A DNA stretch of 64,000 nucleotides from contig JBHGNT010000016.1 in NCBI GenBank assembly GCA_043228905.1, forward strand, positions 6,510,001-6,574,000. The letters are read 5' to 3'. The stretch comes from Azolla caroliniana. Lineage: Eukaryota; Plantae; Polypodiophyta. The notes under the pieces were generated by a model. It was not told where the DNA came from and ran no database searches. It worked only from the letters and a program-made list of their open reading frames with translations. Positions 8,727-63,631 of this stretch are shown here, one piece after another (the first letter of the stretch is position 1; each line of letters opens with the position of its first letter). A program made the translations under genes and the position numbers.

Positions 8727-8874
8727 TGCACTATCATTTTGTCAACAAAAGTAATGTAACAATGTAGCACTAGCTTATAGTAACATCAGAAGATATTAAC
8801 TTGCACTATCATTTTGTTGACAAAAGTAACACAACAATGTACCACTATCTTATAGTAACATTGTAACATATTAA
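8727..8874. repeat. Two-copy ~75-bp tandem repeat
   Basis: TGCACTATCATTTTGT starts at 8727 and 8802; also present in the duplicate near 56996-57145. Confidence 0.8.
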
Positions 8875-9074
8875 ACGTGAATTCTAATGGAATCGACACT
8901 CTAAGCATTGTCTAACTTCTAGGATCATTATTACATGAGAATAAAAGGATGACCAAACAACTTGTGTTTTCTTATGATTGATATGTCATCAATCATGATC
9001 ACTTCCAATAATACATAGATACCGTAAAGTCTTTTGTTCCATTATGTATATAATGAAAAAGTATGAATACTAAG

Positions 9075-10937
9075 ATATATATATATATATATATATATCC
9101 AAAAAAAACTCCTTCAATTAATTATAAGTTTTTACAAATGAGACAATTATGTACAAATCCCTATAGGGACGCGATAGTTCCATCTTATGTGGATGCCCAC
9201 TGACACAAGAAAGGGAGAGGACAACCATTGTTGGATGAAGGCTATTTCATTGTCTTTCAACTCCATTGGAGCCGCCCTTGAGGCCATCATATTGGCTCTT
9301 TAGAGTGGCTACAATTTCACACCATATCTCTTACAATAACCATGTTGAATGTGCGGTTTGGTTGGAGAAGACCCATCTACACTATTGTTTCCATAAAATC
9401 CAAAGAGTTATTGGGTTGACCTATTCCAACACAACTTGAGATTCGTCATTAAGAGGACTTGAGTGGACATTGCCGCTGGTGGCGAAAAAAACCTCTTGTG
9501 CTTTTATCACCAAAGTCCTCCCCTCTTGATGCTCGTATCTGCCAAATGGGGTCAGCCATGATAGCCAACATATATTTCCCCACTTGATTGAGCCTTGCAC
9601 CTGGCATAATTGCAACAAGCGGCCAACCCCCCGCCATATTTGATGAGACGCTAGGCAGTCCCACAGAGCGTGTCGTATTGATTCTATTGCACTTGGGCAC
9701 ACTACACAATTAGGAGAGCTAAGGTCCCCACGTTGCCATGCTCCCACCGGTAGGGACTTATGTATTAATAGCCATTGGAACGTGGTAATTCACCTCACGT
9801 GTTGTTGTTTCTAGATTTTCTGCCAAAACTTGGTGATAATTGTGGGAGGAACTTGAAATGTTCTCCAGACCTTCACAACAGCCGGTTCTTGGGCATTTTG
9901 AGCAGCTAGAATGTAGCTACCCAATCTAGTTGTGAATTGGAAGAAAGGGATGCGATTGCTTCCTTGCCCCGCATAAGGATCACGCTATGTCCATTGCAAA
10001 GGGTTCCAACTGACCTTACGTAGCCATGTGTTTTCATGAGTACATATGTGCTAATCGGGTTGTACTTTGATCGGATCCTGATCTACAATCCATTTATGAC
10101 CAGTATACCCGAGTACTCGAATTGCGTTATTCTGTGTTGGTGTCTCAGTGTCTCGCAATTCAGAGCCTTCGATCCTGTCTGGTGTTCCCCTACCTCTTGG
10201 GATCAGAGATCCCTCCTCCTCGTGGCCTATCCGTTTCTCCATTGTCGTCCTTAGAGTAGTAGTTTCCCCAGTCAGTAGAGCATTAATGATTTTCGATCTC
10301 ATAGTCCATCCGCCCCTGATTCCATGGAATATATTGGCTTGATCTTGTAGTGGTAGTGACATAAATTGTCACCAACATTCTATACTTTTTCCTAGACCTT
10401 CTGCAATGTATCCCCATAACAACCCCTTACGTGATCCCAGTAGTTGATTAGATTCATCCTTGGTACATGGGTTCCATAGGATACGTTGACTGAGCCAGGC
10501 AGGTTCGGAACTCAGTTGATCACACTTGAGCCCTCATCTAATGTCACACCATGCCTTCCACATGGATGCACTGAATCTATCCTCCAATTGGCGGGAGAAA
10601 CTAGGTTTGAGATCCATGTTTAGAATCCATCCCGTTTGGGGGGCCCAATTGACCCCTTTTCGTGGCCTAAAGTAAGCGAAACGTAACCGTAGTAGCATTT
10701 TTGAACAATCATTTCCTACTTGGAGTCCTTGCACCACAAATTTGGCAAGTACGACTTTTGATTGTGAAAGGGGATTTGTGCCAATTGATCATGGCATTAG
10801 ATCTCTTGCAAAATACGGCTAACCCACTTTCTAGCTTTTGGAGGTTTTCCAAGTCCCCTTGCAGGTAGACCGATGTGTCATCTGCAAATTCTATATCCAG
10901 GATGCTTTGGTGAGAATGAGATACGGGAAGACCACGT
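9075..10937 (-). mobile_element. L1-type LINE, 3' part of ORF2 (RT end, zf-RVT) ending at a (TA)n tract
   Basis: DIEFADDT near 10880; CVVCPSAIESIRHALWDC; (TA)n 9075-9098; frame rejoins 20062 upward when the gypsy insert is removed. Confidence 0.85.
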
Positions 10938-26819: not shown

Positions 26820-27578
26820 TGTTGGGAGACAGGTCCCTCCGGATGGGAAGGGAGAAGAACAATGCTGATGAACAAACTCGGTCGATGCCGAAACCGGATG
26901 AGGAGTACCTGGCTACGGAGAGCCGGATGGTGCAGACCCGGTGAGAACCGGATGAGGAGTACTCGGCTACAAAGAGCCGGATGGTGCAGACCCGGTGAGA
27001 ACCGGATGAGGAGTACCCGGCTACGGAGAGCCGGATGGTGCAGACCCGATGAAGACCAGATCAGGAGTACCCGGCCACGGAGAGCCAGATGGTACAGACC
27101 CGGTGAGGAATGCTCACTGAATGAAGAGACATATTCGTAAATATGTTTCTGAGAGTCCATCGAGGCTATATTTGTAAATAGCCGAAAAGTCATATTAGTA
27201 TAAATATGACTTAGGGCAAACTTTTAGTTACCACTGTTGTTGTCATATTCTTGTTGGTGCAAGGATAGAGTGAGCGCGTAACTGTGTACAGAGAGAGAGA
27301 CAGAACGAGGTCGTTGCCTCCGTTGTAACCGTCGCTTGTGGCGAAGAACGTGAGCACGAGGTCGTTGCCTCCGTGAACTCACTGTTGTACATTATAACAT
27401 AGTGATAGTTTGCAGCCTGTGGGCTGTCATGGTTTTTCCCATAGTTTGGGTTTTCCACGTAAACATCCTGCGTACTCGTCTCTTCTTCGTGTCGTTCTTT
27501 ATTTCCTGTTTTTTGTGTATGATTCTAAGCTCGGTTGTGGCCGAGCGTTGCGTATAAGGAGCGTTGTAGTTCCTGTCA
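26820..27578 (+). repeat. Copia LTR2 (divergent subfamily)
   Basis: TGTTGGG...CCTGTCA; about four 54-bp units; differs from LTR1/LTR3 in diagnostic blocks. Confidence 0.9.
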
Positions 27579-30600: not shown

Positions 30601-31608
30601 GCGTGTTTGTGAAGAAGTTCGAAGGAGGCGACTTCCTGATACTCCTTCTGTACGTGGACGACATGTTGATCGTTGGACGGGACCAAGCCAAAATACGAAT
30701 GCTGAAGAAGGCTCTCAACCGAACCTTCTCAATGAAAGACTTGGGTCTGGCAAGACAGATGTTGGGGATGCATATCATCTGGAACCGGCCAACGAGGCAA
30801 CTGTGGCTGTCATAGGAGAAGTACGTGACAAAGGTGCTTCAACGGTTCAACATGTCAGATGCGAAACCGGTCAGATCGACAATTCCGGCAAACTGCAGGT
30901 TATTCGGTAAGCAAAGCCCGAAGACGAAAGCAAAGAAGGCGGATATGATGAAGGTTCCATATGCCTCTGCCGTCGGGAGCTTAATGTACACAATGGTGTG
31001 TACCCGACCGGATATTGGATACGCAGTCGGAGTGGTGAGCTAGTTTATGAGCAATCCCGGCAAGGAGCACTGGAACGCGGTCAAATGGATACTTCGAACA
31101 TGTGTCTCTGATTCGGCTCCGGTAAACCTCAACTTGACGGTTTTACCGATTCAGACATGTCGGCTGATCTGGATACCAGTCGGTCTACATCCTGGTATGT
31201 AATGACATATGCAAGGGGAGCTGTTTCGTGGCAGTCGAGGCTGCAGAAGATGGTTGCGCTGTCAACCACGGAAGCAGAGTACATGGCGGCTGTGGAAGCC
31301 GGCAAGGAAATATTATGGATGAAGGACTTCATCGGAGAGCTCGGTATCCGGCAAGATGAATACTGGCTCTACTGCGACAGTCAAAGTGCAATCCACCTTG
31401 CTAAGAATGCGGCCTACCATTCCCGGACAAAGCATATCTAGCGAAGGTATCACTGGATCCGGGAAAGAGTAGATGACCAGGAGTTTGCGCTGACGAAGAT
31501 CCACACGGCCGAGAATAGGTCAGATATGCTTACCAAAGTACTGATACCCGACAAGTTGGATGCATGCCGGAAGCGGGTCGGACTAGTAAGACATCCCATG
31601 CTGGAGTG
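27608..31608 (+). pseudogene. Copia gag-pol (gag, PR, IN, RT, RH) with several stops and small deletions
   Basis: ORFs 27410..28252, 28500..30815, 30825..31043, 31157..31441; NGLAERMNRT, LYVDDML, HSRTKHI. Confidence 0.92.
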
Positions 31609-31619
31609 AAGGGGGAGTT

Positions 31620-32350
31620 TGTTAGGAAATAGGTCCCTCCGGATGGGAAGTGAGAAGAACAGTACTGATGAGCAAACTCGGCCGAGGCCTAATCGGATGA
31701 CGAGTACCCGGCTACGGAGAGCCGGATGGTGCAGACCCGGTGAGAACCGGATGACGAGTACCCGGCTACGGAGAGCCGGATGGTGCAGACCCGGTGAGAA
31801 CCGAATGACAAGTACCCGGCTACGGAGAGCTGGATGGTGCAGACCCGGTGAGAACCGGATGACGAGTACCCGGCTACGGAGAGCCGGATGGTGCAGACCC
31901 GGTGAGAACCGGTAGAAGAGACATATTTGTAAATATGTTTCTGAGAGTCCATCGTGGCTATATTTGTAAATAGCCGAAAAGTCATATTAGTATAAATGTG
32001 ACTTAGGGCAAACTTATGATTGTTGTTGTCATTCTTGTTTGTGCAAGAAAAGAGAGCGCGTAATTGTGTACAGAGAGAGAGAGAGAGACAGAGAGAGGTT
32101 GTTGCCTCTGTTGTAACCGCCGCCTGTGGCGAAGATCGTGAACACGAGGTCATTGCCTCCATGAGCTCACTATTGTACATTCTAACATAGTGATAGTTTG
32201 CAGCCTGTGGGCTGCCGTGGTTTTTTCCCTAGTTTGGGTTTTCCACGTAAACATCCTGTGTACTCTTCTCTTCTTTGTGTGGTGCATTCTTTCCCCGTTT
32301 TTCTATGTATGATTCTAGGCTCGGCTGTGGCCGAGTGTGAGTTCCTGTCA
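31620..32350 (+). repeat. Copia LTR3 with four 54-bp tandem units (~31695-31912)
   Basis: TGTTAGG...CCTGTCA; unit GGATGACGAGTACCCGGCTACGGAGAGCCGGATGGTGCAGACCCGGTGAGAACC. Confidence 0.9.
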
Positions 32351-33316
32351 GTAATAGACTGTAACGTTTCTCTCTCCTTGGGCTATAAAAGGAGAGGAAA
32401 GAGGACTTAGTGGGGATCGCGTTGTGGAGGATGAAGTCCTGTCAGACTGGGACTGAGCTCTTCTCCTCTATCTTTCGTCGTTCTCTGCAGGTTTTGGGAG
32501 GCTGCCTCTACTTCGTGGAAACTACAAGTGCTTCTGGCAGAGGCTCCATCTCGCATTGTCCATGTGCGTTGTGTGAGTTGGTGTCAGCGCGTTGACGCTT
32601 ACCGGCTAGCCGGCTGTAATCTTGATCATAAATATATATTTGCTTTATTCGTTGCTCAATCTTCATTGTGAGTTCCCTGTGTATTTGTGTGCGCGGCTCA
32701 GCCATGGTTTCGTGTTGCTCCTCCCTCTGTTCGGTTATTCCCCGGTTCAGGGGCCCCGCGGTCCCGCCTTGGTTTCTCCTGCGCGTGCAGAATAACACGA
32801 CATAATTTAGTGAACTCGACGTGAAACAAGGTGGCAGAGGAATCGAGGATGAGGGGATCTGAGCTCGCCGAAGCCATGGCAGTAGCAGTCGATTGGATGG
32901 TAAGTGCTCGCAAGGGCACGGGCGCCCTCGATAGGGCCATTGAAGTAATTGTCGGCACAATAGGCCGGTTCGATGGGAAGGACACCACGATTTATTTGGT
33001 GGCCTACCGAGCCGAAATGGTGATGAGGGACATCCCGGAGGACAGGCATTTGGCTGGGTTCCCTTGGGTGGCGACACCAGGCATCCACGTAGAGGTGCTC
33101 GAGGTGTAGGCTGGATGCCAGACCTGGGGAGAATTCGAACGGTATGGGTTTGATGACGCACTTCGGTTATCGAAGTGGGACTTCATGGATTGGGTGGAGA
33201 CCCCCGGAAAGGGGATGAATGTGTCGGCGCTTCTCCGGGAGTTTGAAGAATGCTTCATGCAGCTCTCGGCACTGGACAAAGTAGTGCTAGACACGAGCCG
33301 CGTCTTGTTGTTTGTC

Positions 33317-36300
33317 TTTGCTTGTGTTCCAAAGATGACATGGCCTGTATTCTTTCTTCCTCTAATAGTAATGAGGCTTCTTTCCGAATTCGTTCCGACT
33401 ACAGTGCATTTAATTTTTCAGTTGCTTGTATTCGGAGTGTCGGAATCTAAAATTGTACTCGCATTACGGCTTCTAATCCGAAATCCATTCAGAGAGGAGT
33501 TGATTTAATAGATGTTTTATAAGACGTCCGATATGCCCATAAAGCACTCTGAAGCTTTTGATCCCAATCTGTACGATTTTCATTGACTATCTTTTTGAGT
33601 ATTGTCTGCAGTGTTTTATTTGTCGATTCTGCTAATCCATTTGCTTGTGGATAGTAAGTAGTGCTCTTTTTATGAACCACTGCGTAATATGTGGATAGCT
33701 CATGTACAATTTTATTAATAAAATGTGTACCTTGATCGCTTACTAATTCTATCGGACACCCAAATCGACACCATATATTTTCGTACAAATTTTTTGTTGT
33801 TTATGTTGTCGTATTGTCCCTGAGATGTTTAGCTTCTACCCACTTTGTACAGTAATCTATGGCGATTATGATGTAACGATTACTTCTGCGTATGGCTGCT
33901 GGTTTAAATGGACCGACAAAATCAAATCCCCATTTTTGAAATGGCTCCAAAGGCAAAACAGGTTGGAAAGGCATTCTGTCCTTTTCTGTGGGTTGCCCCA
34001 ATCTTTGACATAAATCACATTTTCAACAATAGTTCACTACATCCTTCATTATTGTCGGCCACCATAACCCATTGTTCCATATTTTTCGGGCTGTAGTTTC
34101 TCCGGCATAATGACCACCGGCAATACGACAATGAGATTCTCGCAGAATTATCGATTTCTCAAATTGTCGTACTGTCCTTCTCCAAATTCCATCTGCACCT
34201 TTATGATAGAGAGTATTGTTCAAAAAACAGAAATTTTGATTATGAACGGCTAAGCTTTTCCTTTTATCCACCGATAGATGCTCGGGTGGTAGCCCTGTTG
34301 TAAGACAGATTGTCATCTCCAAGATCCAAGCATCCTTGCCTTCCTCATTTATTTCTTGTACCCATACTGCTTCCACTCGAAAGAGTTGTCCATCCGGAAA
34401 ATCATCTGGCACACCTATGCCTTCTTCTCCCGACTCTAGTCGGCTAAGATAATCAACAATCACATGTTGTACTCCTAGCCGATGTAAAATGTCAAACTTG
34501 AATTCTTGCAGTAATAATGTCCATTGTGCTAGCTTACTAGTTAATTCTTGTTTAGAGACTAAATAGAGAAGAGCAGAATGATCGACATGGAATGTAAATT
34601 TCTTGCCCAAAAGGTAGTGGCGAAGTTTATTGATACTATAAATCATTCCTAACGCTTCCCTCTCGGTTGTTGAATAATTTCTTTCCGCTATCGAGAGTTT
34701 TCGACTAGCGTAATACACTGGTCTATACCAGTTTGGTTCGGATAACTACATAAGTGCACTGCCGATTGCTATATCAGATGCATCAACGAACACATGGAAG
34801 GGTTTATTCCAGTCAGGTCGTTAAACCACCGGAACTTTAGATAGCATTTTCTTGAGACACTCATAGGCATCCTGTTCCACACTTGTCCATTGAAAAGGAA
34901 CTTTATGCACCGTTGTGTGTAGAGGAATGGCAACATCTGCAAGATATCTAATCATCCTACTATGCCATCTAATCTGCCGCAAGAACCGACTAAGGCCCTT
35001 AGTGTTTGTAGGTGCTGGTGCTTCTAATATGGTCCTAACTTTGTTTGGGTCAACTGCAATTCCTTCTTGGCCGACAATATGGCCTAACAATGTCCCATTA
35101 GTAACTCTGAACGCGCATTTTGCCGGATTCAAGCTCAGCCGACCTTTCTGACATTGCTCCAAGCATAGTCGTAAATGTTCCCCATTCAGTAACGAAGGCT
35201 ATCTTTTCTTGATCCTCCGGATGCATCCTTACCTGATTATATCCACTTAATCCATCCAGGGAAGTGTACATTTCATGACCAGCGACTGCATCCGATATCC
35301 CATCCGTAAACGGTAATGGAAATGCGTTTGTTACTGTTGCTGCATTTAGTTTCTGATAGTCAACGCATACTCGAATTTTTCCATTCTTTTTCGGAAAAAC
35401 TACAATCATACTTAGCCATGTAGCTTTTTCTACCGGTCGAATAAACCCTACCTTCAGGAGTTTATCTATTTCCTCTTTAACTTTAATTGCATAATTAGAA
35501 TTTAAACGATACCTACGTTGTTGAACTGGTTTCGCATATTTATGCAGGTTAATTTGGTGTTGGCAAAAAGCCGGATCTAGCCCTTTCATGTCTTCAAAAG
35601 ACCAAGCAAAAACATCCTTATATTGGTTTAGTAACCCAAGTAACCTTTGTTTATCCGCCACTCTCATATCTTTAGCTACCAACACTATTTTTGGTTCAAA
35701 CCCCTTATCATCTTCTGCCAAATTTACTTCCTCCAATGCCGAAGCCTGAACCCATTGAGATACCTTCATTTCTCTTTCAGTAGCTTCCTGCTGCAATCAG
35801 ATTTCTTTCATTGTTTGCTCATCTAATGGTAATTCCTCTTGTGAATCCATGTACGGTGTCAAGGCTTGTAATATGTCTACTTCGAACAAAGGGATAATTT
35901 TTGGGTTATCATTAAAATAATGATTCTCTTCGACCTCATCTAGTCCTTCCATCATATTTACGGCCTCCGCATGAATTGGCAAACATTGTTTGCTCGTCGT
36001 AATCTTATTCTGAGTAGACACCCGGATTTTCGTCTTGCCTTTCCAGAATGTTAATAAATTCTGATTCCAAATTTGCTTAATATTAGCAGTTTTTAAGCAT
36101 GGTCGACCTAATAGCAAAGGATATGATCTAGGAGCTTCCAAATGACCATAACTACGGGCAATTCATTAGCTTGATTAATCTCATTAGCTTGGAGCATTTG
36201 GGACACATTGTTTTTATTTGCTTCTTCTACCCATTCCTTGGCTGCTTTCCGAACAACTTCCTAAATTTCCCACTCTGATTGTTTACTTTTACTTTTGGTG

Positions 36301-45808: not shown

Positions 45809-46263
45809 TATTATAGATCATAGTACTAATGTAAGCTTAAGATAAGGATAATGAAAAGATAGATAGAAAGGAGAAAGAGAAAGAAGGGTGCCGATCCACC
45901 CGACCACCCCCGAGCGAAGGGATCGAGACGGACTCGAGCCTCGATCGGCGTCCCATACCACCGCCGTGGCGTCGAGTCGTACCTGGTGCTGGCGCGCTCG
46001 CTACAAGAGTTGACCCACCACACGAGCAGAGTCTCGATGTAGTCAAAAGATCCTCAAATGAGGGTAGCTAGGCCTCTTATTTATAGCGAAACCCAAGGCC
46101 CCCAGGCAAGTTCACACTTGACCTAATGGGTTGTCTCAATCCCGAGGATTAAAAGTAATCCTCCCCTTCTTTACACTCTCCTTTAACCCTCACACTTATC
46201 CACGTGTATAGAATACTACGGTAAATTCTTACCACGGGATATTATATGGTCATGCCCGTAACA
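45809..46263 (-). repeat. Chromovirus 3' LTR
   Basis: Element-strand termini TGTTAC...ATAATA; direct repeat of 52370-52824. Confidence 0.96.
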
Positions 46264-49200
46264 TACTCCCCCTCTTTAAAACATTGCACTCTTGCAATGG
46301 AAAGTTAGGGAAGTTAGTTCTAAGTGTATTTTCGCGTTCCCATGTGGCATCTTTTATTGATTTATCCATCCATTTTATTTTGAATTCTCGGATTTCTTTA
46401 GTACGTAATTTTTTTGTTTTAACATCGAGAATTCTTTCTGGTACATGTGGTTTAGAAGATAATTCTTCAGAAGTAACCAGAGTTTCAGTCATAACTGTAT
46501 TGTCGCCAGAACCTAGAAGTTCTTTTAGACGACTCACATGAAAGACTGGATGAATTCCGACACCATCGGGAAGAGCGAGACGATAGGCTGATGACCCAAT
46601 GCGTTTGAGGACTGTAAAAGGTCCACAAAACCGTGGGGCTAACTTAGCGCACTTACCCATAGACAATGTCTTAGAATTGTGAGGTACACGTAAAAATACC
46701 TTCTGTCCAGGGTTGAATACACGAGGTTGCCTATGATGATCGGCATAAAAACGCGCTCTATCTTGAGCTGTTTTTATATTATCTCGTGCAATATGCAACA
46801 TATCTTGCATATCCTGAAGAAAGTTTTGCGTACTTCGCAACTCATCATGATGTATAGTAACATCAATCGGGGCTCGTGGCTGAAAACCATACATCAACAT
46901 AAAAGGACTATATCCCGTCGACGTATGCTTGGAGCTGTTATAAGCAAACTCCAAAATTGGGAGATAACGTTCCCATTTTGTTGGTTTTGCACCAACGTAT
47001 GCTCGAAGCATGTCCTCAATAATTTGATTTACTCGTTCTGTCTGTCCATCGGATTGAGGATGATCCGTGGAGCTCATGCTCAACGTAGTTTCTAACTTCT
47101 TAAAGACCTGCGTCCAGAAGTCACTAGTAAACTTTGGATCTCGATCACTCACGATATCCATCGGTAACCCATAAAAACGAAACAATTCGTCAACGAATTG
47201 GTAAGCCAATTCAGGAGCTGTTACCGTGGTTTTAGTAGCAATAAATCTGGCCATTTTAGTTAGTCGATCAACGACAACCCAGATGGCATCATGACCTTTT
47301 TGGGTGCGAGGAAGGCTAACAATAAAATCCATGGATATACTTTCCCACTTATTATTGGGAATGTCCAAGGGATGTAAAAGTCCTGCGACTTTAAGTCGCT
47401 CGGCTTTGTTAACCTGACACTGGTGACATTTAGTCACATAGCTATGTATGTCAGGACGCATCTTAGGCCAATAAAATTGAGTGGAGATGAGAACGAGTGT
47501 ACGATGTATTCCAGGGTGCCCTGCTGAGGGTGCATCATGGCATTCAAAAAGAATCCTCTTTTTGACCTCGGGTAAATCTGGAACACAAACCTTCCCATTA
47601 CGGTAGAGCAAACCGTTAGCAATGTGGAAGTATTCCTTCGAGGATGTGGTGGTGTCTGTTCCAGACTCAACTCTTGCCCAGTATTTTGCGAAATAACTGT
47701 CATCAGGATACTTTCCTCGAAGGTGATCATAAAGATCTGATGATATTTCAGTGAAGCTAAGCGTGTTAACTTCACGGATGCGACTTAGTGCATCAGCGAC
47801 AGTGTTCATGGAACCTTTACGATATCGTATGGAAAAATCAAAGTCCTGGATGAGATCAGCCCATCGTCCCTTACGACCTTTCAGGTCTTGTTGGTCACAA
47901 AAATATTTCAAGGACTCGTGGTCCGTAGTTACCACAAAGTGATTTCCATAAAGATAATGGCGCCATGTTTTGAGCGCATGTATAACTGCAAATAATTCCT
48001 TTTCTTGAACGGTATACCGACATTGAGCAGAATCAAGTTTCTTACTCTCGAATGCTATCGGTTTACCATCTTGATACAAGACAACACCTATAGCGTAATC
48101 GCTGGCATCGGTTTCAACCTCAAAAGGTTTTGAAGGATCGGGTAAAAGAAGTGAAGGAGCCTTGCAAACCAGGTCCTTGAGTTCCGTAAAGGCAAGGTCT
48201 AGTGTAGCATTCCACACAATAGGTTTTGTAGACTTACGCGTTTGACCTTTTAAAAGATCAGTAAACGGTGTCGTCAATTGGGAGTAATTACGAAGAGACT
48301 TTCGCAAAAACCCCACAAAACCAAGGAATGATCGAACTTCTCGAATATTCCGAAGAGTGGGCCAAAGCTTGATTTTCTCAATGCGAGAAGGATCAATTTC
48401 AACTCGTTCGGTTATGAGATGTCCTAGATAAGTAATTGATTTCTTGAAGAACTCACATTTTGAGATCTTCGCATAAAACTGTTTGTCACGCAATGTTTGT
48501 AAAACAAAGCGGACATGTCTAGCATGTTCTTGTAATGTACGGCTATAAACTAAAATATCATCCAAGAAAATAACGACAAATTTTCCAAGTTGTTCTCGGA
48601 AAATGTCATTCATTTCTTGTTGAAAAGTAGCCGGAGCATTGGTCAAACCAAAAGGCATAACCAAAAACTCGTAATGGCCATAGCGCGTACGAAATGCCGT
48701 TTTAGGAACATCGTCCTCACTTATTCGTATTTGATGGTAGCCAGTACGGAGATCAAGTTTCGTAAAATACCGAGCTCCCTGGAGACGGTCAATTAGATCG
48801 TCAGCCCGGGGCAATGGATACGAATTCTTGATCGTCACTTTATTCAAGCGTCGGTAATTAATACACATACGCCATGTGCCCTCTTTCTTTTTAACCAAGA
48901 GAACTGGTGCACCCCATGGAGATTTACTATAACGTATATAACCCATTCGTAAATAGTCCTTGAGTTGCTTAGATACCTCATCTTCTTCGGATCGACTTAA
49001 GCGATACGGAGGTATACTTATTGGTGCAACACCAGGTACAATATCTATACGATGGTCTATATTACGTTTAGGAGGTAACCCATCAGGTAGTTCACTTGGA
49101 AAAACATCATGAAAATCATTTAAGATTTCATCAAGTTGTTGTTGTTCAAAATATGTTAATTGAATCGGGACATTATCGATATTGTAAACGTGAATGTCCG

Positions 49201-50680
49201 GATCAAGTACACAATAAAATAACGTAGAACAAGACAACTCGGATATTGATGGACACGAGGAAACAATCGAGAGGGATTGTTTTTTTACACATTGAATAAA
49301 ATGCGTACAATCGTTCAGTACAAAAGAAATGGAATGACGAACCCAATCAATAAATAAAGAAGAGTTTTTATTATAAAACCAGGGATAACCCAGTATTACA
49401 TCGGTGGTACAAAGATTCATTACATGGAAGTCTACTTCCTCTATATAAGTATCAATAGAAATTCCTAATGAATGAATCGCCCCGTTGATGTATTGTACTC
49501 TTCCATCAGCCAAGTGCACCGTGTAGGTGTGATCACTTACGGTGGGTTGGATTCCCCATATCTGAACCAAACGATCATTCACAAAATTGTGTGAGCTTCC
49601 CGAATCAAATAAAAATTGTACGGGAGATCCATTGATATACCCGTTTGCACGTAGTAAATCATTGGGACCCAATACATAGTGAGGGAAAGAACATTGACAA
49701 TTACTTAAATGATGTGTATAGACCTGAAGGACATTAGGAATCTGACCTTTATGGTCTGCAGCTTTAGCTTTGTTGTCGTGCTCTTTCCGTTGGAGCTTTC
49801 GACATTGATCTTTTGTATGACCCTTCTTTTTGCAGAATACACAAAAAGGATGTTGTCGCTTACAATCGCGATCCAGGAATTCGTTGGGTGTCTTGCGTTT
49901 CCCAACAAATTGCGACTGCTTAGTCCCGGGCGCTTCGTTGGGTTTGTTATGGTCCTTCTTCGAAGTGCGTTGATAGCGAAGAACTATTTCAACGGCCTCT
50001 TCGAAGGATTTTGGATCCTTATCGTGCACTATCCAGTGATAGTCCGAATTGGGGATGCCATTGACAAAACAAGCTATCAACCAATTGTCCCCTTCTAGAC
50101 CCGATTTTTGGATTTGGGTTCTAGCATGGTGAACATAGTCTTCTAGCGAGGAAAATTTCCTGCTAGAGAGGTTCATTAAAGCTTGTGCTGCCTCGGTTCG
50201 AGAGGGAGGTTGCAGAAATTGGCCCTTAAAAACCGTGACAAAATCTGTCCAGGTATCGGGCAATTTCCCCATAGTACGGAGGCCACGCCACCAGGCGGCG
50301 GCCTTACCCCCGAGTTCTCGGCCGACATATGCAATCTTCGTACTATCTGGCGTGGGATAGAGCTCAAAATGAGACTCCCATCATCCCAGCCATGTGCAGA
50401 TTGCTTCTTCGGTTCTTTCCTTTTTGTCTCCCGTAAATGGCTTAACGACAAATGATGGTTCACCTTGTCGCTCATCAGGTCTATTAGTCTCACGTTGTAG
50501 GCTAATGACACGTGCCTCAAGAGCACTCTGAGATTGCCGAAGTTCGGTCATCTGTTGAGCGGTGAAACTAAGGAATTGGGTTATTTGTGCCAAATACATC
50601 TCAGTGGACATTTGTCCAGGAGGATTCCCTTGAGTTCCTTCCGCTTGAGCGGATGACATCGGGTCGTTAATTTGAGCCAT
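46250..50680 (-). CDS. Single-frame gag-PR-RT-RH-IN-chromodomain polyprotein with one in-frame TGA at 50381-50383
   Basis: ORFs 50381..50680 and 46250..50272 are in the same frame; [48 protein letters not shown]...IKW...ATWE; stop lies 14 bp inside the 3' LTR. Confidence 0.92.
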
Positions 50681-50692
50681 TAAAGATTATTT

Positions 50693-52253
50693 CTGGAAAA
50701 GAAATAGGATAAGGTCAGAGATATAGTCATAACATCGTGTCGTGATGTAAACATATCATGAGCGAGCATTAATCGATATCATTATCTCACGTCAATACCC
50801 CTCTAGACGTATGAGATGAGGTTCAAGATCAGGTTACTATGGTAACACAAAGGTGTTTTAAAAACCATGGGGGTGACAAATAAATGTCTTTCCCTGATCT
50901 CTATATCGATTTTTTCATGGTGGCTCCCCGAGGCTCAACCATGTATGTTCGCGTCATGAATAGTTTATACACGAAAAAAAAAATGTTAACAATAAACTAT
51001 GTTTCGGTGCCCACATAAGTGGTTTCGGCTCTTTAAGTCCTATTACGAGGACCCCGAGGTGCACTTAGACCTTAAGTCTAAACATGTGTTATAGTCATAT
51101 GTATCAAGGATGTTGTATGGTCTTGGTCATATTTGAACTCGAGACCTCGAGAACAAATACATTAAACACTTGAGCCAACCAAGTAAGTTGCTCTTCTCGA
51201 ATGCTTAATGTTTGATGCGTATAAGAGATATGCGAGGCAATTGATCATATACGTTTTTTTAAAAGAACATATATGTCAAGGGTCCTTATTTCGCCCTCAT
51301 TTACCAACACTATGTTGGTACGTTACCTAACCTCAAGTCTCGTAATTACGATGGCATATGTCAAAGGGCAACCTAATGGTCAAGCCAAATGAGCCCTCGT
51401 TTCGTAGTAGGCTCACGTGGGCCATCACATGGTCACGTCATTACGAATGCCTCTCGTAAGAACGAGCTCATGGTGGCATCGTATCCATGTAACGAGGGAA
51501 GGATGTTGGATACGTGCGTCATTGGAGCGACCTCACTTGAAGTGGGTCAAGCCCTACGTACTCAACATCATTATGGCTATTGCGTTTCTTTACGTAACGA
51601 AATCGAGGTCATCAACGGGGTTGTCAACAATAAAAAATTGTTGAAAAAGGAATGGTGACAACGCCATTCTCACAAAAATGTGAGGACGGCCACCAACATC
51701 CTTTTCCCGACCATGACAACTTTCGACATAATCACGTAATAACGAATATACACATATGGTTACTTATCACATATATACGATCAAATACGTATATATGTGA
51801 CCACATATGCCTATATTCAACATATCGTTATAGTAAATAGCCACAAATGATGTGATCGAGATACGTAATCGAGGTATATACCTCTACGCACACGAAACAT
51901 CCACAAATAAGAGATCATCGTAATACGCAATGGAGGTATTGACCTCTTACGCATACGAGACCAAACGCATATCGTTTACAACAAATTAAGGTATTAAACT
52001 CATACGCAAACGTAACATATGTTCGTGAACGTAATACGTAATTGAGGTATTAACCTCGTACGCATACGACACTCATCACATATTATTAATATGTCAAACG
52101 AGGTATTGACCCCGTGCACATATGTAAACGTTTTAGATAATCAATTAAAGACCACTACAACATCATTGATTTAATGAAAAAAATTACATATAAACTAAAC
52201 ACATGATTAGATGGGAGAAGAGAGAATAGAAAAAAAAATATGGAAAGAGTTAC
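50693..52253 (-). other. Hairpin-dense leader region, candidate 5'-UTR intron and structured cis-acting RNA
   Basis: Donor-like CG|GTAACT at 52253; CTGAC + pyrimidine tract + CAG ending 50693; more than a dozen inverted repeats between; function inferred. Confidence 0.55.
51857..52125 (-). repeat. Array of five stem-loop units with GAGGT-N4-ACCTC cores
   Basis: Cores at 51871, 51933, 51988 (degenerate), 52044, 52100; spacing 62, 55, 56, 56 bp. Confidence 0.85.
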
Positions 52254-52369
52254 CGAAGTTCTTTGTTGATCGTTGTCTGGATCAAGGCCAACCGCACAAT
52301 GATCGATCAGCATCAATCAAAAGACAAATGAAAAACAAAGAAACATTAGTAAAAAAATCTGATACCAAA

Positions 52370-52824
52370 TATTATAGATCATAGTACTAATGTAAGCTTA
52401 AGATAAGGATAATGAAAAGATAGATAGAAAGGAGAAAGAGAAAGAAGGGTGCCGATCCACCCGACCACCCCCGAGCGAAGGGATCGAGACGGACTCGAGC
52501 CTCGATCGGCGTCCCATACCACCGCCGTGGCGTCGAGTCGTACCTGGTGCTGGCGCGCTCGCTACAAGAGTTGACCCACCACACGAGCAGAGTCTCGATG
52601 TAGTCAAAAGATCCTCAAATGAGGGTAGCTAGGCCTCTTATTTATAGCGAAACCCAAGGCCCCCAGGCAAGTTCACACTTGACCTAATGGGTTGTCTCAA
52701 TCCCGAGGATTAAAAGTAATCCTCCCCTTCTTTACACTCTCCTTTAACCCTCACACTTATCCACGTGTATAGAATACTACGGTAAATTCTTACCACGGGA
52801 TATTATATGGTCATGCCCGTAACA
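52370..52824 (-). repeat. Chromovirus 5' LTR
   Basis: Adjacent to PBS; TATA-like CTATAAATA on minus strand. Confidence 0.96.
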
Positions 52825-53266: not shown

Positions 53267-55060
53267 AGTGAGCTTTTAAAATGGACAAGGTACATACTTG
53301 TCATTGTATAATGACAATTATAAGGCAAGTTATAAAGCAAATGATTGGCTTATGAATTGGATTAAACCAATCTTTAAAGCTGGAGTAAAGAAAAGTATCA
53401 AATTATCGTACAATAATGTGAGCTCAACTATTGCTAAATTATAAAGCACTACTATGGAGTAAAAGATAAGCACATGGGTTGAAAGTACAAGCAAAAGAGC
53501 ACTTGGGCAAGCAGGATTTAGACCAAAACACTCCATCGTGGACCATTTGGTCACATTGAGAGTAATCATGGAAGAGAGTTGACTACAAGAAAAAACACTT
53601 TATTGTTGTTTTGTTGATTTTAAGAAAGCTTTTGATACCGTACCACGAATTGAGCTTTGGAATAGAATGCTAGAGATTGACATGCCATTAGAGTACCGAG
53701 TTGTTGTTGCATGCCTATATGAACAAGTTAAATGCCAATTAAAAATGGACAGTGGATTCTCAAAGAACTTTTTAAGTAACATGGGGGTCAAGCAAGGATG
53801 TCCACTATCACCCACACTCTTTGGCTTATGTATTGATAAATTAGAAGAAGTGGCGAAAAAGGTTGAGAAGAGAAGAAGGATTGAATGCCCCTAAATTGAT
53901 GCAATGTGTTATCTTATTGCTTTTATATGCAGATGATGTGGTACTCTTCTCATATGATGCGGATAGTATACAACATTTACTTGGGGTATTAGAAGAACTT
54001 TGCCATAATAGTGGACTAGGAGTGATTGTGGAGAAAACAAACATGATGGCAATGCAAACCATCCAACCCTATCATTACCCTATGCTCACATAATAGAGGT
54101 GAACATATACAATTTGTTCAAAGCTTTAAATATCTTGGTATTGATGTACCCACCAAAAATAAATGGAGTACATGCATTGAATCTAGGCTTAAACCGGTTA
54201 GAGATTGTATTACCTTTTGGAGAACCAATGCAACCAAAGTGATACTTGTGGATGGGAAGTAAAACTAATGTTGTTCAATGACATGGTAACTCAAGTATTG
54301 CTTTATGGAGTAGAAGTATGGCGTGGCACCATCTCTCTTAATGCATGGAATGAGATTGAGAAATGTCAAAAGATGTTTTTATGGAGACAATTAGGAGTTA
54401 CAGGTTATGCTCTTGGAAACATGTGTTCGGCCCATAGAGATATTGGCACTCCAAAGGGTATATAGATACATTACAAAAGTCAAGAATATGCATTATGTAA
54501 TGATTGAGGAAAGGTTGGTGGAATCATTAAGGATGAAATGGGAAGATGCTAAGAGGACAAAGCTAGAATATTACATTGTAAATGTCAACCCTGAATGTTG
54601 GTCTCAATATAAGGCAAGAATGCCTATTGATCATGTCCGACATTATCTCATTACCAATATGAGTAGTAATGCTCGTAGAGCCCTCACACTACTTCGCACT
54701 GGATCTCACAAGTTAGGCATTGAAGTTGCATCATGGTATCAAAATGTAACAAATTTGAGGGCATGTAAAGTATTCAATGAAGGTATAGTAGAGGATGAAT
54801 GTCACTTGCTCTTCACATGCTCGACATTGCTATTGGTTAAAGATATGATGACATATAAGTGGCATACTTAAGACACCGCCTATAAGGTTGAGCTCATATG
54901 AGCATGCCTTATTCATGCATGGAGACATTGTGCTTCAATGTATGAATACCCCTTTTTAGGAAGGGGACACATATCAAGAACACATGTATAGTCTGGTCCC
55001 ATAGCTAAGGTAAAAAATTGGCCTCTTTATGGACGATAAAAATTCTAATTCTAATTCTCT
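53267..55060 (+). mobile_element. Second copy of the RTE-X-like LINE
   Basis: Near-identical ORF fragments 53667..54871. Confidence 0.8.
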
Positions 55061-57341
55061 CTCTCTCTCGTGTCCAACCCTGCTACATAACACTTCTTTA
55101 CGAGAGATCTTTGCATTGTGAGATAGATCCTTGATTAGTTCTACGCAAGTAATACAACCTTGGTACATAATGTTTCTATAAAACATTGCAACCAATTCCA
55201 ACATCCTAGTTATTAGACTTTCATTTTATCTAGAAATTTAGGTTTCACACCATAATAGTCGACACAATAACATTGTTTTCCTGATGCAATGTAACACGTG
55301 GACATCATTAGAAGAAATTACAAATTGTTTTCAACTTTCACATATTTAAGCTTGAGTTTCAATCTTGAATGGGAGTATTTTTGTAGCCTAAATAAACTCA
55401 TGGCGATGATTAATATAAGGATCATGCATTGTCTTTCAGAATTCATTTTGAGTTGCTCATAAAAACATCATGAAAACACAAGAATGAAACAGTTCCTACT
55501 AGAAACATGCGAGTTAGAATCATGGTGACTTAAACTAACAATATTATCTAAATGATGCCAAGAAATATTTAGTTCTAAAAATACAATATTTTATACTAGA
55601 TAACGTTGTACTTTTAGCTTTAAAGACAAGCAACTTTACCTAGTGAATATTTTTTCTATACATAATGTTGAACAAAGCATCGTTAAGGTCATCTTTGCCA
55701 AAAAAACATTTCTATACTAATGAGATACTACCATTACCGCCTAATCGTTTAGGCGCCCAACCCATAAGCGCAACTACCCACTTGCAAGGACACATGCCCT
55801 CCATCATTGGTGCTAAAAAATATGTTTACTTAAACACTTATCTTAGTGGCATGAAACCATGGTGTTCCTTGAAAATACTAACAATAATAATCTCACATTA
55901 TAGCTGGAGGCATCAGACTATGGTGCTCAAAGGTCTTATGGCCTACATTGAAACTTATGTCCTCAAAGAGAATAAGCATTTTCCAATGGCCCAATGAGAT
56001 ATTTTCATATTGAGTAGTTTTGACGCATCAATTCCTTGACCAACCTATGGCACTATAAGTGTGCTAAAAATGATTTTGATACCAAAGAAGGTTACTTTAA
56101 ATCACATATTTATTGTTGTAACTTTTCTATGGGAGTATCACTCATGTTCCTAATATTTAACTCTTTATTGTATATTGGTCAAAAGCCTATGTTTGAATGT
56201 ATGTGAAAGCATCATATCACATTCCTAACTACTATATGTTATTGATAATATTATCTTCAGTTGCCAAATCAAAGTGCCAACTAACTAAATATTGATCAAA
56301 TGGGCAATGAAAAATACAAATGGTGCCTTTTAGGAAGGGTGGTCATACCAACTTTTAATGATACAAGTTATTGTGACTAGATACTATTGAGATTGTTTGT
56401 AGAAGGAGATGTGTGTTACTTTCTCTATAAAGAGAGGAATGTGGCCAATGAGACCAAACCAATGTGTTGTATGCTTTCTTGATAAATGAAAATTAACATA
56501 CAATAAATAGAGACACTAAAGGTAAAATTGTTCATGTTGATGCATGCTAAGCTTTATTGGACATCTCATGTCTTATGTTCTATCGTGCTTGTGGAGTCTC
56601 GACTTAGGCCTTTGATGCTCCCTAATGGTAGCTTAATGTTTGTGCCTCATTAGTTTCTTAGATCTTTCAAAAGGAATCCATTTAACTAATCTCAATTGCC
56701 TCAAATATACTCAATTTGGGCTTCATAATTTGTGCATGTGGCATATTTATATTTAACGTGTTATTTTGTATACACTTCAAAAAAGGCTATAATTTGAAAC
56801 AACCAAACTTTTGTTTGATCAACAAAAACCCAAACGAGACTAAGGAATCTTTATCGGCATCATGTATCACATGGACCCATGGGATCGTTACCATCATGTT
56901 TAACAATGTGAACCTCTGATCTTTATGAAATATTGTTTGATCTATCAAAACACAACATAGAGATAGGGGTTGGAACAAAACCCTAGCGAACAAAATGCAC
57001 TATCATTTTGTCAACAAAAGTAATGTAACAATGTAGCACTAGCTTATAGTAACATCATAAGATATTAACTTGCACTATCATTTTGTTGACAAAAGTAACA
57101 CAACAATGTACCACTATCTTATAGTAACATTGTAAGATATTAAACGTGAATTCTAATGGAATCGACACTCTAAGCATTGTCTAACTTCTAGGATCATTAT
57201 TACATGAGAATAAAAGGATGACCAAACAACTTGTGTTTTCTTATGATTGATATGTCATCAATCATGATAACTTCCAATAATACATAGATACCGTAAAGTC
57301 TTTTGTTCCATTATGTATATAATGAAAAAGTATGAATACTA

Positions 57342-58695
57342 ATATATATATATATATATATATATATCCAAAAAAAACTCCTTCCATTAGTTATAAATTT
57401 TTACAAATGAGACAATTATGTACAAATGTCTGTAGGGACGCGATAGTTCCATCTTATGTGGATGCCCATTGACTCAAGAAAGGGAGAGGACAACCATTGT
57501 TGGATGAAGGCTATTTCGTTGTCTTTCAAATCCATTGGAGCTGCCCTTGAGGCCATCATATTGGCTCTTTAGAGTGGCTACAATTTCACACCATATCTCT
57601 TATAGTAACCTTGTTGGATGCGCAGTTTGGTTGGAGAAGACCCGTCTACATTGTTGTTTCCATAGAATCCAAAGAGTTATTGGGTTGACCAATTCCAACA
57701 CAACTTGAGATTTGTCATTAAGAGGAGTTGAGTGGACATTGCCGCTGGTGGCAAAAAAAACCTCTTGTGCTTTTATCACCAAAGTCATCCCCTCCTCTTG
57801 ATGCTCGTATCTGCCAAATGGGATCTGCCATGATAGCCAACATATATTTCCCCACTTGATTGAGTCTTGCACCTGGCATAATTGCAACAAGTGGCCAAAC
57901 CCCCGCCATATTCGATGAGATGCTAGGCAATCCCACAAAGAGTGTCATATTGATTCTATTGCATTTGGGCACTCTACACAATTAGGAGAGCTAAGGTTCC
58001 CACTTTGCCATGCTCCCACCGGTAGGGACTTATGGATTAATAGCCATTGGAACGTGGTAATTCGCCTCGCGTGTTGTTGTTTCCAGATTTTCTGCCAAAA
58101 CTTGGTGATAATTGTGGGAGGAACTTGAAATGTGTGCCAGACCTTCGCAGCAGCTGGCTCTTGGGCGGTTTGAGGAGCTAGAATGTGGCTACCCAATCTA
58201 GTTGTGAATTGGAAGAAAGGGATGGGTTTGCTTCCTTCCCCCGCATAAGGATCACGCTATGTCCATTGCAAAGGGTTCCAACTGACCTTACGTAGCCATG
58301 TGTTTTCATGAGTACATATGTGCCAATCGGGTTGTACTTTGATCGAATCCTGATCTACAATCCATTTATGACCAGTATACCCAAGTACGATTGGGGCTCA
58401 CTAGCGATGGAGGATTTTGCGACTGTGGAGTTTTAGGTAGGACATGGGATTTCCCCACCACTCGCCATTCCATCACAGCCTTATCAGGGCGTGGTGGGGG
58501 AGGCTTTTGATTTCCTATGGTGTCCCGACCATTCAAGGTCTCCATGGTGGGATCCTTAATGCGTCTCGTGGGGCAGTTCTTTTTAAAATGACTGGAAGCT
58601 TTTTGCATGCAAAACATTGTCACGGTGCGCTGATCACTTCAATGCGTTGTTCAATCTGTATTCCGTTTTCCCCTAGAATGAGGATCTTGTGTGAA
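57342..58695 (-). mobile_element. Second copy of the L1 with most of ORF2 deleted
   Basis: ORF1 tail fused to the zf-RVT region at 58387-58388. Confidence 0.85.
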
Positions 58696-59972: not shown

Positions 59973-61150
59973 TGTCGTGGAGAAAAACCGTCCCTAGGAT
60001 GAATCGGTGAATAGAGAGCATGAACCGGCCCTTACACGCGGGCACATGTTTTGATATGTTGTACATAGTTAGGCACAGGTCGGCGATGTGAATATCCTAG
60101 GTAGTGTGTATTCATTAGGTAGGGAATCGAGGAGTATCTCTATCTGAAAGGACAGAGAATAAAGGTGATGTAACATACTGTAACGTTTCTCTCTCCTTGG
60201 GATATAAAAGGAGAGGAAAGGGGATTGAGTGGGGATCGCGTTGTGGAGGACGAAGTCCTGTCAGACTGGGACCGAGCTCTTCTCCTCTATCTTTCGTCGT
60301 TCTCTGCAGGTTTTGGGAGGCTGCCTCTGCTTCGTGGAAAGCCCAAGTGCTTCCGTCAGAGGCTCCATCTCGCGTTGTCCATGTGCGTTGTGTGAGTTGG
60401 TGTCAGCGCATTGACGCTTACCGGCTAGCTAGCTGTAATCTTCATCATAAATATATATTTGCCTTATTCGTTGCTCGATCTTCGTTGTGAGTTCTCTATG
60501 TATTTGTGTGCGTGGCTCGGCCATGATTTCGTGTTGCTCCTTCCTCTGTTCGATTATTCCTCGGTTCAGGGCCCCCGCGGTCCCACCTTCGTTTCTCCTG
60601 TGCGCACAAAATAACATGACATAATTTGGTGAACTCGACGTGAAACAAGGTGGCAGAGGAATAGAGGATGAGGGGATCAAAGCTCGCTGAAGCCATGGCG
60701 GCAACAGTCGATCGGATAGTAAGTGCTCGTGAGGGCATGGGTGCCCTCGATAGGGCCATTGAAGCAATTGTCGGCACAATAGGCCGGTTCGATGGGAAGG
60801 ACTCCATGAGTTATTTGGTGGCCTACCGAGCTGAAATGGTGATGACGGACATCCCGGAGGAAAGGCGTTTGGCTGGGTTCCCTCGGGTGGCGACACCGGG
60901 CATCCACGTACAGGTGCTCAAGGTGCAGGCTGGATGCCGGACCTGGGGAGAATTCGATGCGCGGCTCCTCAAACGGTACAGGCTTGATGATGCACTTCGG
61001 TTATCAAAGCGAGACTTCATGGATTTTGTGGAGACCCCCGGAAAGGGGATGAATGCGTGAGCGCTTCTCAGGGAGTTTGAAGAACGCTTCGTGCGGCTCT
61101 CGACACTGGACAAAGGAGTGCTGGACACGAGCCGCGTCTTGTTGTTTGTC
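59973..61150 (+). mobile_element. Second copy of the tRNA-Trp gypsy LTR (59973-60621, uninterrupted), PBS 60627-60644 and truncated gag
   Basis: Empty site for the copia complex near 60170; TGGTGAACTCGACGTGAA. Confidence 0.88.
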
Positions 61151-63631
61151 TTTGCTTGTGTTCCAAAGATGACATGGCATGTATTCTTTCTTCCTCTAAC
61201 AGTAATAAGGCTTCTTTCTGAATTCATTCCGACTACAGTTCATTTAATTTTTTAGTTGCTTCTATTCGGAGTGTCGGAATTTGAAATTCTACTGGCATTA
61301 CGACTTCTAATCCGAAATCCATTCGGAAAGGAGTTGATTTAATAGATGTTTTATAAGACGCCCGATATGCCCATAAAGCACTCTGAAGCTTTTGATCCTA
61401 ATCTGTACGATTTTCATTGACTATCTTTTTGAGTATTGTCTGCAGTGTTTTATTTGTCGATTCTGCTAATCCATTTGCTTGTGGATAGTAAGGAGTGCTC
61501 TTTTTATGAACCATTGCGTAATATGTGGATAGCTCATTTTATTAATAAAATGTGTACCTTGATCACTTACTAATTCTATCGGACACCCAAGTCGACACCA
61601 TATATTTTCGTACAAATTTTTTGCTGTTGATGGTGTCGTATTGTCCTTGAGATGTTTAGCTTCTGGTTATGATGTAACGATTACCTGTGCGTATGGCTGC
61701 TGGTTTAAATGAACCGACAAAATCCAATCCCCATTTTTGAAATGGCTCCAAAGGCAAAACAGGTTGGAAAGGCATTCTATCCTTTTCTGTGGGTTGCCCC
61801 AGTCTTTGACATAAATCACATTTTCGACAATAGTCCACTGCATCCTTCATTACTATCGGCCACCATAAGCCATTGTTCCATATTTTTCGGGTTGTAGTTT
61901 CTCCGGCATAATGACCACCTACAATACCACAATGAGATTCTCGCCGAATTATCGATTTCTCAAATTGTTGTACTGTCCTTCTCCAAATTCCGTCTGCACC
62001 TTTATGATAGAGAGTATCGTTCAAAAAACAGAAATTCTGACTATGAATGGCTAAACTTCTCCTTTTATCCGCCAATAGATGCTCAGATGGTAGCCCTGTT
62101 GTAAGACAGATTGTCATCTCCGAGATCCAAGCATCCTTGCCTTCCTTATTTATTTCTTGTACCGGTACTGCTTCCACTCGAAAGAGTTGTCCATCCGGAA
62201 AATCATCTGGCACACCTATGCCTTCTTCTCTCGACTCTAGTCGGCTAAGATAATCAACAATCTCATCATGTACTCCTGGCCGATGTAAAATGTCAAACTC
62301 CAATTCTTGCAATAATAATGTCCATCGTGCTAGCTTACTAGTTAATTCTTGTTTAGAGACTAAATAGAGAAGAGCATAATGATCGACATGGAATGTAAAT
62401 TTCTTGCCCAAAAGGTAGTGGCGAAATTTATTGATACTATAAATCATTCCTAACGCTTCCCTCTCGGTTGTTGAATAATTTCTTTCCGTTGTCGAGAGTT
62501 TTCGACTAGCGTAATACACTGGTCTATACCAGTTTGGTTTGGATAACTGCATAAGTGCACTGCCGATTGCTATATCAGATGCATCAACGAACACATGGAA
62601 GGGTTTATTCCAGTTAGGTGGTTGAACCACCGTAACTTTAGATAGCATTTTCTTGAGACACTCATACGCGTCTTGTTCCATAGTTGTCCATTGAAAAGGA
62701 ACTTTATGCACCGTTGTGTGTAGAGGAATGACAACATCCACAAGAAATCTAATCATCCTGCTATGCCATCTAATCTGCCCCAAGAACCGACTAAGGCCCT
62801 TAGCGTTTGTAGGTGTTGGTGCTTCTAATATGGTCCTAACCTTGTCTGGGTCAATTGCAATTCCTTCTTGGCCGACAATAGGGCCTAACAGTGTCCCATT
62901 AGTAACTCCGAACGTGCATTTTGCCGGATTCAAGCTAAGCCGACCTTTCTGACATTGCTCCAAACATAGTCGTAAATGTTTGAAATGTTCCACTTTCAGA
63001 CTATATACGGCAAAATCATCTAGGAAAACTTGCATAAATGCAGGAATGTATTCCACAAAGATTTCCTGTATAACCCTTTGAAATGTGGCCGGAGCTGTTT
63101 TTAATCCGAACATCATTACTACTGCCACAAATACTCCCCATTTAGTAACGAAGGCTATCTTCTCTTGATCCTCTGGATGCATCCTTACCTGATTATATCC
63201 ACTAAATCCATCCAGGAAACTGTACATTTCATGACTAGCGACTGCATCCGATATCCCATTCGTAAACGGTAATGGAAATGCGTCCGTTACTGTTGCTGCA
63301 TTTAGTTTTCGATAGTCGACGCATACTCAAAATTTTTCATTCTTTTTCCGAACAACTACAATCGGACTTAGCCATGTAGCTTTTATTACCGGTCAAATAA
63401 ACCCTACCTTCAGGAGTTTATCTATTTCCTCTTTAACTTTAATTGCCTAATTAGGATTTAAATGATACCTGCGTTGTTGAACTGGTTTTGCATATTTATG
63501 CAAGTTAATTTGGTGTTGCCAGAAAGCCGGATCTAGCCCTTTCATGTCTTCAAAAGACCAAGCAAAAACATCCTTATATTGCTTTAGAAACCCAAGTAAC
63601 CTTTGTTTATCCGCCACTCTCATATCTTTAG
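61151..63631 (-). pseudogene. Second copy of the Athila-like pol (RT-RH-IN)
   Basis: ORF 61656..63227 retains MMFGLKTAPATFQR and VFLDDF. Confidence 0.88.

Follow-up and report, generated by a model that had tools for sequence, protein, structure and literature searches.

The leader of a young retrotransposon in the genome of Azolla caroliniana is filled by a GT-AG intron of 1,561 nt (50693-52253), which contains both an array of five hairpins and a conserved structured core, and which is missing from two genomic copies of the element. Positions refer throughout to the window, that is, the whole 64,000-nt stretch of DNA that was analysed, and all features of the element lie on the minus strand, which is its sense strand. 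The preferred interpretation, to which a probability of about 45% is assigned, is that the array acts on the unspliced, packaged RNA as a redundant, family-specific helper to a more conserved core signal, and that the spliced RNA is the messenger for Gag-Pol. In plant LTR retrotransposons, the choice between translating and packaging an RNA is largely open. The element described here offers a clean layout, in which one intron divides two RNA forms and the genome records the rare copying of the spliced one. Moreover, the 168-nt core has no Rfam match and is kept across families whose reverse transcriptase (RT) regions are approximately 83% identical, and defined RNA pieces are available for binding, probing, and splicing-reporter work.

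The retrotransposon and its relatives

The element is 7,016 bp long (45809-52824), is flanked by the target duplication CAGGG, and is bounded by two identical 455-bp LTRs: the 5' LTR at 52370-52824, with a TATA-like box at approximately 52646, and the 3' LTR at 45809-46263. Directly behind the 5' LTR lies a 10-nt primer-binding site (52358-52367; TGGTATCAGA(GC)), which we take to match initiator tRNA-Met, and a polypurine tract is located at 46266-46277. A single gag-pol frame (46250-50680) encodes capsid, protease, RT, RNase H, integrase, and a chromodomain. This order, with the chromodomain following protease, RT, RNase H, and integrase, together with the LTRs, primer site, polypurine tract, and target duplication, is that of a Ty3/gypsy chromovirus. 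The frame of the window copy is interrupted by an in-frame stop at 50381-50383, which is present in none of 28 close copies. Between the primer site and gag, an interval of 1.7 kb contains no long frame. The best named protein homologues are angiosperm retroelements, and an examination of 175 candidate stretches in viral contigs yielded no relatives.

The window copy belongs to family A of six related families, A to F. Three related proteins are 75-77% identical. One of them represents family B, which is likewise young and shares the genome with family A (98-100% in the 150 best matches), and further relatives come from 18 metagenome loci. The leaders of families C-F are truncated or decayed, and the comparison of arrays is confined to A and B. 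One copy of family B has a gag start other than ATG; because no other copy has it, it was rejected as a family trait.

Some features of the copies are recorded as observations in their own right. The LTRs end in TG...TA instead of TG...CA (52370-52371 and 45809-45810), as do those of the intron-less copy L191; family B ends in CA. The primer site (52355-52367) has been shortened to 10 nt in the youngest subfamily, with the exact form in 47 of 102 aligned rows, and older copies match over 12-13 nt. Loci L014 and L025 hold paired tandem elements with one LTR apparently common to both. Elsewhere in the window, 54-nt tandem repeats (26838-27161 and 31583-31960) lie in or beside Copia-type frames at 25.5-30.8 kb. 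At 5084-9815 and, approximately 48.3 kb away, at 53338-58087 lies a repeat that is several kb long and 93-99% identical; its two copies probably form the termini of a large element with nested insertions between them. Another Ty3/gypsy family is represented by two copies (33135-35796 and 60170-63428), which are 91-94% alike and which neither of the RNA models described below matches.

The leader intron

The intron begins at the donor TCG/GTAACT (52248-52256), 114 nt past the primer site, and ends with a branch-point-like CTGAC, a pyrimidine tract, and a CAG acceptor (50693-50718), 12 nt before the gag ATG. The array starts 140 nt inside it. Among the 102 aligned rows, no shared change affects the GTAA of the donor or the key letters on the acceptor side. 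The predicted junction was used as a query before any intron-less copy had been seen, and the search returned one match, as did its control; the match is a copy of the element, 97-98% identical. This copy has both LTRs, the 5' LTR being short of 86 bases, and exactly the segment 52253-50693 is missing from it. A DNA search with the junction then gave a second intron-less copy, the only one among the best 40 of 1,881 candidates, which carries an additional A at the junction together with the older primer site and different flanks, and is 96% identical to the first. The intact donor, by comparison, gave 716 matches against 5 for the control. The ends, branch point, pyrimidine tract, and precise removal all fit a spliceosomal GT-AG intron. 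Its two ends have only one base in common; recombination is therefore an unlikely origin of the intron-less copies, and splicing followed by reverse transcription is indicated. Junction searches gave no match for a donor inside the LTR and none for intron-less copies of family B. In families B-F, a YAG is located 7-12 nt ahead of the gag ATG; in B it is found in 15 of 26 copies, the AG being absent at the acceptor in the other 11.

Splicing would have marked consequences for the transcript. If transcription is assumed to start 30 nt behind the TATA-like box, the number of upstream AUGs falls from 55 in the unspliced RNA to 4 in the spliced one, and the position of the acceptor just ahead of the gag ATG means that the gag-pol messenger would be the spliced RNA. 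The spliced RNA retains LTR parts, the primer site, and the purine tract, yet it accounts for less than 0.3% of copies (2 versus 716), a ratio equally compatible with rare splicing and unable to separate it from selective packaging. Because this RNA keeps its primer site and is nevertheless hardly copied, the intron likely carries packaging signals. In public sequencing data, at least 13 runs contained matching words, none of those listed above 0.14 of the words. The splice joint was absent among the matches listed (15 + 15, with 79 + 9 beyond the listing), which come from contigs of six runs, from related organisms and of uncertain RNA status, and this absence does not count as evidence. The same applies to two of these contigs that span the acceptor unspliced and to one that stops one base before it.

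Hairpin array and conserved core

An earlier note on this DNA had described five regularly spaced stem-loops, and five apices of the type GAGGU-YAAU-ACCUC are indeed found on the sense strand, at 52113-52100, 52057-52044, 52001-51988, 51946-51933, and 51884-51871, with spacings of 56, 56, 55, and 62 nt. The two irregularities it listed are also present: apex 3 is degenerate, and apex 5 has the loop AUAU, with a closing pair that is U-G or C-G in other subfamilies. The corresponding units 1 to 5 extend over 52080-52134, 52024-52077, 51969-52021, 51913-51966, and 51851-51903. A search of the genome with a two-apex pattern gave 1,397 matches, against none for the control. A covariance model of the unit recovers all five positions with E values of 4e-11 or lower, and no other position in the window scores below E 1. 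Tandem Repeats Finder did not detect the array. Rfam gave no match at the gathering score and four weak ones (E 0.098-4.9), none in the array or the core.

The array is a diverged tandem repeat with a unit of approximately 56 nt, since units 2 and 4 are identical at 45 of 56 positions and 32 units from seven copies can be aligned with a mean column identity of 71%. The agreement extends to the linker (10 of 17 positions in units 2 and 4), so the statement in the earlier note that the linkers are not alike does not hold. Four or five units are present, depending on the subfamily. The array region folds better as sense RNA (z -5.52) than as antisense RNA (z -3.52; 0 of 200 shuffles in each case), and the same preference is seen in all five units taken singly. 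When the whole leader is folded, the pairing probability of the apex is 0.81-1.0 for units 1, 2, 4, and 5 and 0 for unit 3; when only the array is folded, the values for units 1-5 are 1.0, 0.42, 0.01, 0.75, and 0.28. RNAalifold, applied to 34 copies, paired the units with one another instead of forming five hairpins, and in 2 of 56 pairs both sides had changed. Other structures are predicted in this part of the intron as well: two further long hairpins next to the array (51600-51835) fold comparably well (z -4.17 and -5.20).

Selection on the array was assessed with a tree of 102 rows, consisting of the window and 101 of 129 loci; the remaining 28 loci were dropped because their longest continuous alignment was shorter than 1,700 nt. 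Changes on internal branches were read as those of active lineages and changes on terminal branches, which show an excess of C>T and G>A, as decay. Mismatches that are G-U on the sense strand and A-C on the other had been taken as a sign of selection on RNA structure. This argument is not confirmed, because the hairpin arms contain seven TRCGTA near-palindromes in the same sense, whose mutual pairing through G-U produces the bias unaided. Changes from Watson-Crick pairs to G-U versus A-C stand at 9:3 for internal branches and 88:58 for terminal ones (P = 0.37); several of the shared changes are A-U to G-U, though not significantly above the terminal branches. Pair-keeping and pair-breaking changes do not differ either (13:13 internal, 104:108 terminal; P = 1), and covariation across units is at shuffle level (0.153 versus 0.145; 106 of 500 shuffles). 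Thus, the compensatory change by which a packaging signal (psi) keeps its structure is seen neither in the tree nor among the units.

The primary sequence of the apices varies less. With C>T and G>A excluded, internal changes number 2 in 50 sites of the apex stems, 19 in 84 of the lower stems, and 35 in 116 unpaired sites. In a set of 47 copies chosen on the core, with the presence of the array disregarded, shared variants occur at 4 of 50 apex-stem sites versus 26 of 116 unpaired array sites (P = 0.029); the lower stems, with 13 of 84, show no significant constraint (P = 0.28), and the ratio of shared to private variants in the apices is not significant (P = 0.59). The array as a whole is retained: it is present in 55 of 60 copies chosen by a motif 1 kb away, and the other five also lack the primer site in the stretch that was fetched. 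The third apex is broken identically in 54 of the 102 rows, which form the largest young and most active subfamily, including the window copy; it is intact in older subfamilies, and all five apices are intact in a subfamily approximately 12% away. These variant counts and the shared broken apex mean that the apex is modestly constrained, one unit is dispensable, and constraint on the lower stems is unsupported.

Comparison with family B gives a mixed result. The earlier note had regarded the absence of the units from related active elements as an argument against its proposal, and such an absence is found in part: the A-type apex occurs in none of 28 loci of the equally active family B, and the unit covariance model, a search of plant genomes with which the note had suggested, gave no hit below E 0.05 when run on 17 loci from related families. 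Family B nevertheless has a hairpin array of its own at the same position, in 24 of 28 loci, consisting of two units of approximately 118 nt and two to four of approximately 83 nt; two of the four misses do show an array by self-comparison. It begins 136 nt past a donor-like site (140 nt past the donor in A), and this site is located 120 nt past the primer site (114 nt in A). The two arrays coincide in position and are unrelated in sequence, so that what is retained between A and B is the position only. In locus L100 (1740-2300), the leader array of family B folds with z -4.36 in sense and -2.42 in antisense. One unit of the 118-nt type also occurs in the metagenome locus L074, with one stem changed on both sides.

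The conserved core (50778-50945), 168 nt long and located upstream of gag, is the most constrained part examined. It has 8 internal versus 108 terminal changes; the corresponding counts are 199 and 684 for the part of the leader that separates the array from the core, and 39 and 78 for gag third codon positions; the internal-to-terminal ratio is 0.07 for the core and 0.29 for the leader. Shared and private variants in the core stand at 7:34 (P = 0.0097). The core can be aligned across all six families, and a core model yields 12 hits with E values of 1.3e-11 or lower across 24 sources, with every family matched. In a hand-drawn structure, 92.1% of 365 cells are paired and 6 of 38 pairs are changed on both sides. 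The covariation score was reached by none of 500 shuffles (10 related sequences, from which the structure itself was drawn). The first hairpin of the core bears a self-complementary loop, CCUCGGGG, flanked by AG (50926-50933), which is a candidate dimerisation site: it is unchanged in families A-D and has a predicted homodimer energy of -14.7 kcal/mol, and the single-strand fold closes two pairs within it. Because of its conservation in six families, its covariation, and this loop, the core is a better candidate than the array for a packaging and dimerisation signal. In locus L087 (1904-2072), a match to the core model (E 1.3e-11) is opposite in strand to the weak Gag match of that locus.

A further constrained, branched element with a second CCTCGGGG is located at 51004-51064. 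It is also present in families C and E and was not found in B or D, and its fold taken alone is not above shuffles (z -1.21). A reading of this element as a hammerhead or twister ribozyme was rejected, as Rfam gave no match.

The loop of the last hairpin of the core (50789-50799) contains an 11-nt complement to the array apex. The predicted energy of this pairing is -16.9 kcal/mol, a value that 300 shuffles of the remaining intron never reached, and the family-variable letters of the loop suit the A apex best in family A itself (-17.3 versus -10.5, -10.8, and -13.1). This complementarity was noticed first and tested afterwards, and it is treated as a lead. Units of family B pair with their own core loop no better than with the A loop, and a joint fold of unit 4 with the core hairpin keeps the two apart.

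Proposed mechanism, alternatives, and known systems

In the proposed mechanism, a single transcript would have two fates. The spliced form, freed of most upstream AUGs, would serve as the main messenger for Gag-Pol. The unspliced form would retain the structures of the intron, dimerise through the core, and be packaged, with its packaging and dimerisation signals presumably located in the intron. The hairpin apices could dock a protein that handles unspliced RNA, either Gag or a host export factor, or could pair with the core. The earlier proposal of a multivalent array for packaging or export retains its basis in one respect, since the array lies inside an intron kept only by the unspliced RNA and is thus confined to the RNA form that is copied (2 versus 716). 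It is weakened by the broken third apex, the lack of covariation, the unconstrained lower stems, and the absence of the unit from sister families, including B, and for these reasons the array is weakly supported as a packaging signal. Known loops that bind nucleocapsid have an exposed G; the array loops have none, which is a point against the proposed mechanism. An extended form of the mechanism, in which the whole packaging apparatus is located in the leader intron, Gag-Pol comes exclusively from the spliced form, and the five hairpins serve as redundant selectors that pair with a docking loop of the core in a splice-or-package RNA switch, is distinctly unlikely.

The same array could instead act as DNA. 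It may be an enhancer, composed of palindromic sites for host factors in a first intron, with the hairpins as a by-product of symmetry. The TRCGTA motif, present seven times, resembles NAC or bZIP cores, and every unit retains the sequence of its 5' arm and apex regardless of pairing by the 3' arm. The absence of covariation across units and the family-specific turnover at a fixed place fit as well, and precedents exist in the enhancer of the ZAM 5' UTR and in the LTR palindromes of Sireviruses, as far as these are described in PMC1885662 and PMC4728375. An enhancer would, however, have no need for all five units to fold better as sense RNA, an 11-nt complement in the core would be meaningless for double-stranded DNA, and the several shared A-U to G-U changes, though not significantly in excess, also point to RNA. 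On balance, an enhancer is somewhat unlikely.

Two other explanations are less probable still. The array could regulate splicing by offering decoy donors, a mechanism outlined in PMC3082916; in both A and B it starts 136-140 nt past the donor, both unit types contain AG/GU closed by ACCU (46 of 80 units in B), and the A apex can pair with a loop approximately 100 nt before the acceptor. However, the apex motifs score 6 of 9 against the donor consensus, the intron has 19 GT sites with equally high scores so that none stands out, and the joint fold separates unit 4 from the core hairpin, which makes a splicing regulator improbable. A near-neutral product of template slippage, in which one hairpin was duplicated in tandem and is now decaying, would account for the tandem origin, the variation between four and five units, the broken unit 3, the drifting lower stems, and the lack of a homologue in sister families. 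Against such decay stand the under-varied apex stems, the five intact apices in the subfamily approximately 12% away, and the array of family B at the same place, and we regard this origin as improbable too. The helper on unspliced RNA remains the preferred reading.

The literature searched, which included few subscription journals, showed no account of either the array or the core, nor of a plant chromovirus with an intron that spans the leader, and according to a 2025 review, RNA export of plant LTR retrotransposons has not been directly studied (PMC12786077). Individual parts of the arrangement have counterparts. As high-copy, young Ty3/gypsy elements with a chromodomain, the RLG1 and Tcn1 chromoviruses of mosses, as characterised in PMC7466625, PMC2864245, and PMC6317226, resemble the present one. 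However, most members of Tcn1 are described as having no tRNA primer site (PMC6317226), a trait that the present element, which has one, does not share. The palindrome arrays of maize Sireviruses, as presented in PMC4728375, likewise consist of a few hairpin-forming repeats at a fixed place with a sequence that differs between families; they are located in the LTR of Copia elements, whereas the array considered here belongs to a Ty3/gypsy element and occupies an internal, transcribed intron. The RNA of Ty1, also an LTR retrotransposon, likewise carries short self-complementary stretches near its 5' end, the dimerisation palindromes PAL1 and PAL2, as well as a 5' pseudoknot (described in PMC6844567). 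The dimerisation palindromes of Ty1 were tested, whereas those of the present element are predicted, and the likeness is one of description.

In retroviruses, psi is located behind the major donor. The retroviral leader, as outlined in PMC9143442, also carries structured signals only on unspliced RNA and a self-complementary, purine-flanked loop, of which the loop in the core is a predicted counterpart. According to the same source, all retroviruses make Gag from unspliced RNA, whereas in the present element, whose acceptor precedes the gag ATG by 12 nt, splicing would produce the entire messenger for gag-pol. A division of the RNA into one pool that is translated and another that is copied, as proposed here, is known from BARE1, EVADE, Ogre, CRR, and Bagy2, and spliced BARE RNA was, by the accounts cited, not found as DNA (PMC3735527, PMC12786077). 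The introns of these elements are described there as lying in or between coding regions, whereas that of the Azolla element is confined to the leader, behind the primer site and ahead of gag, and is accompanied by rare intron-less copies in the genome.
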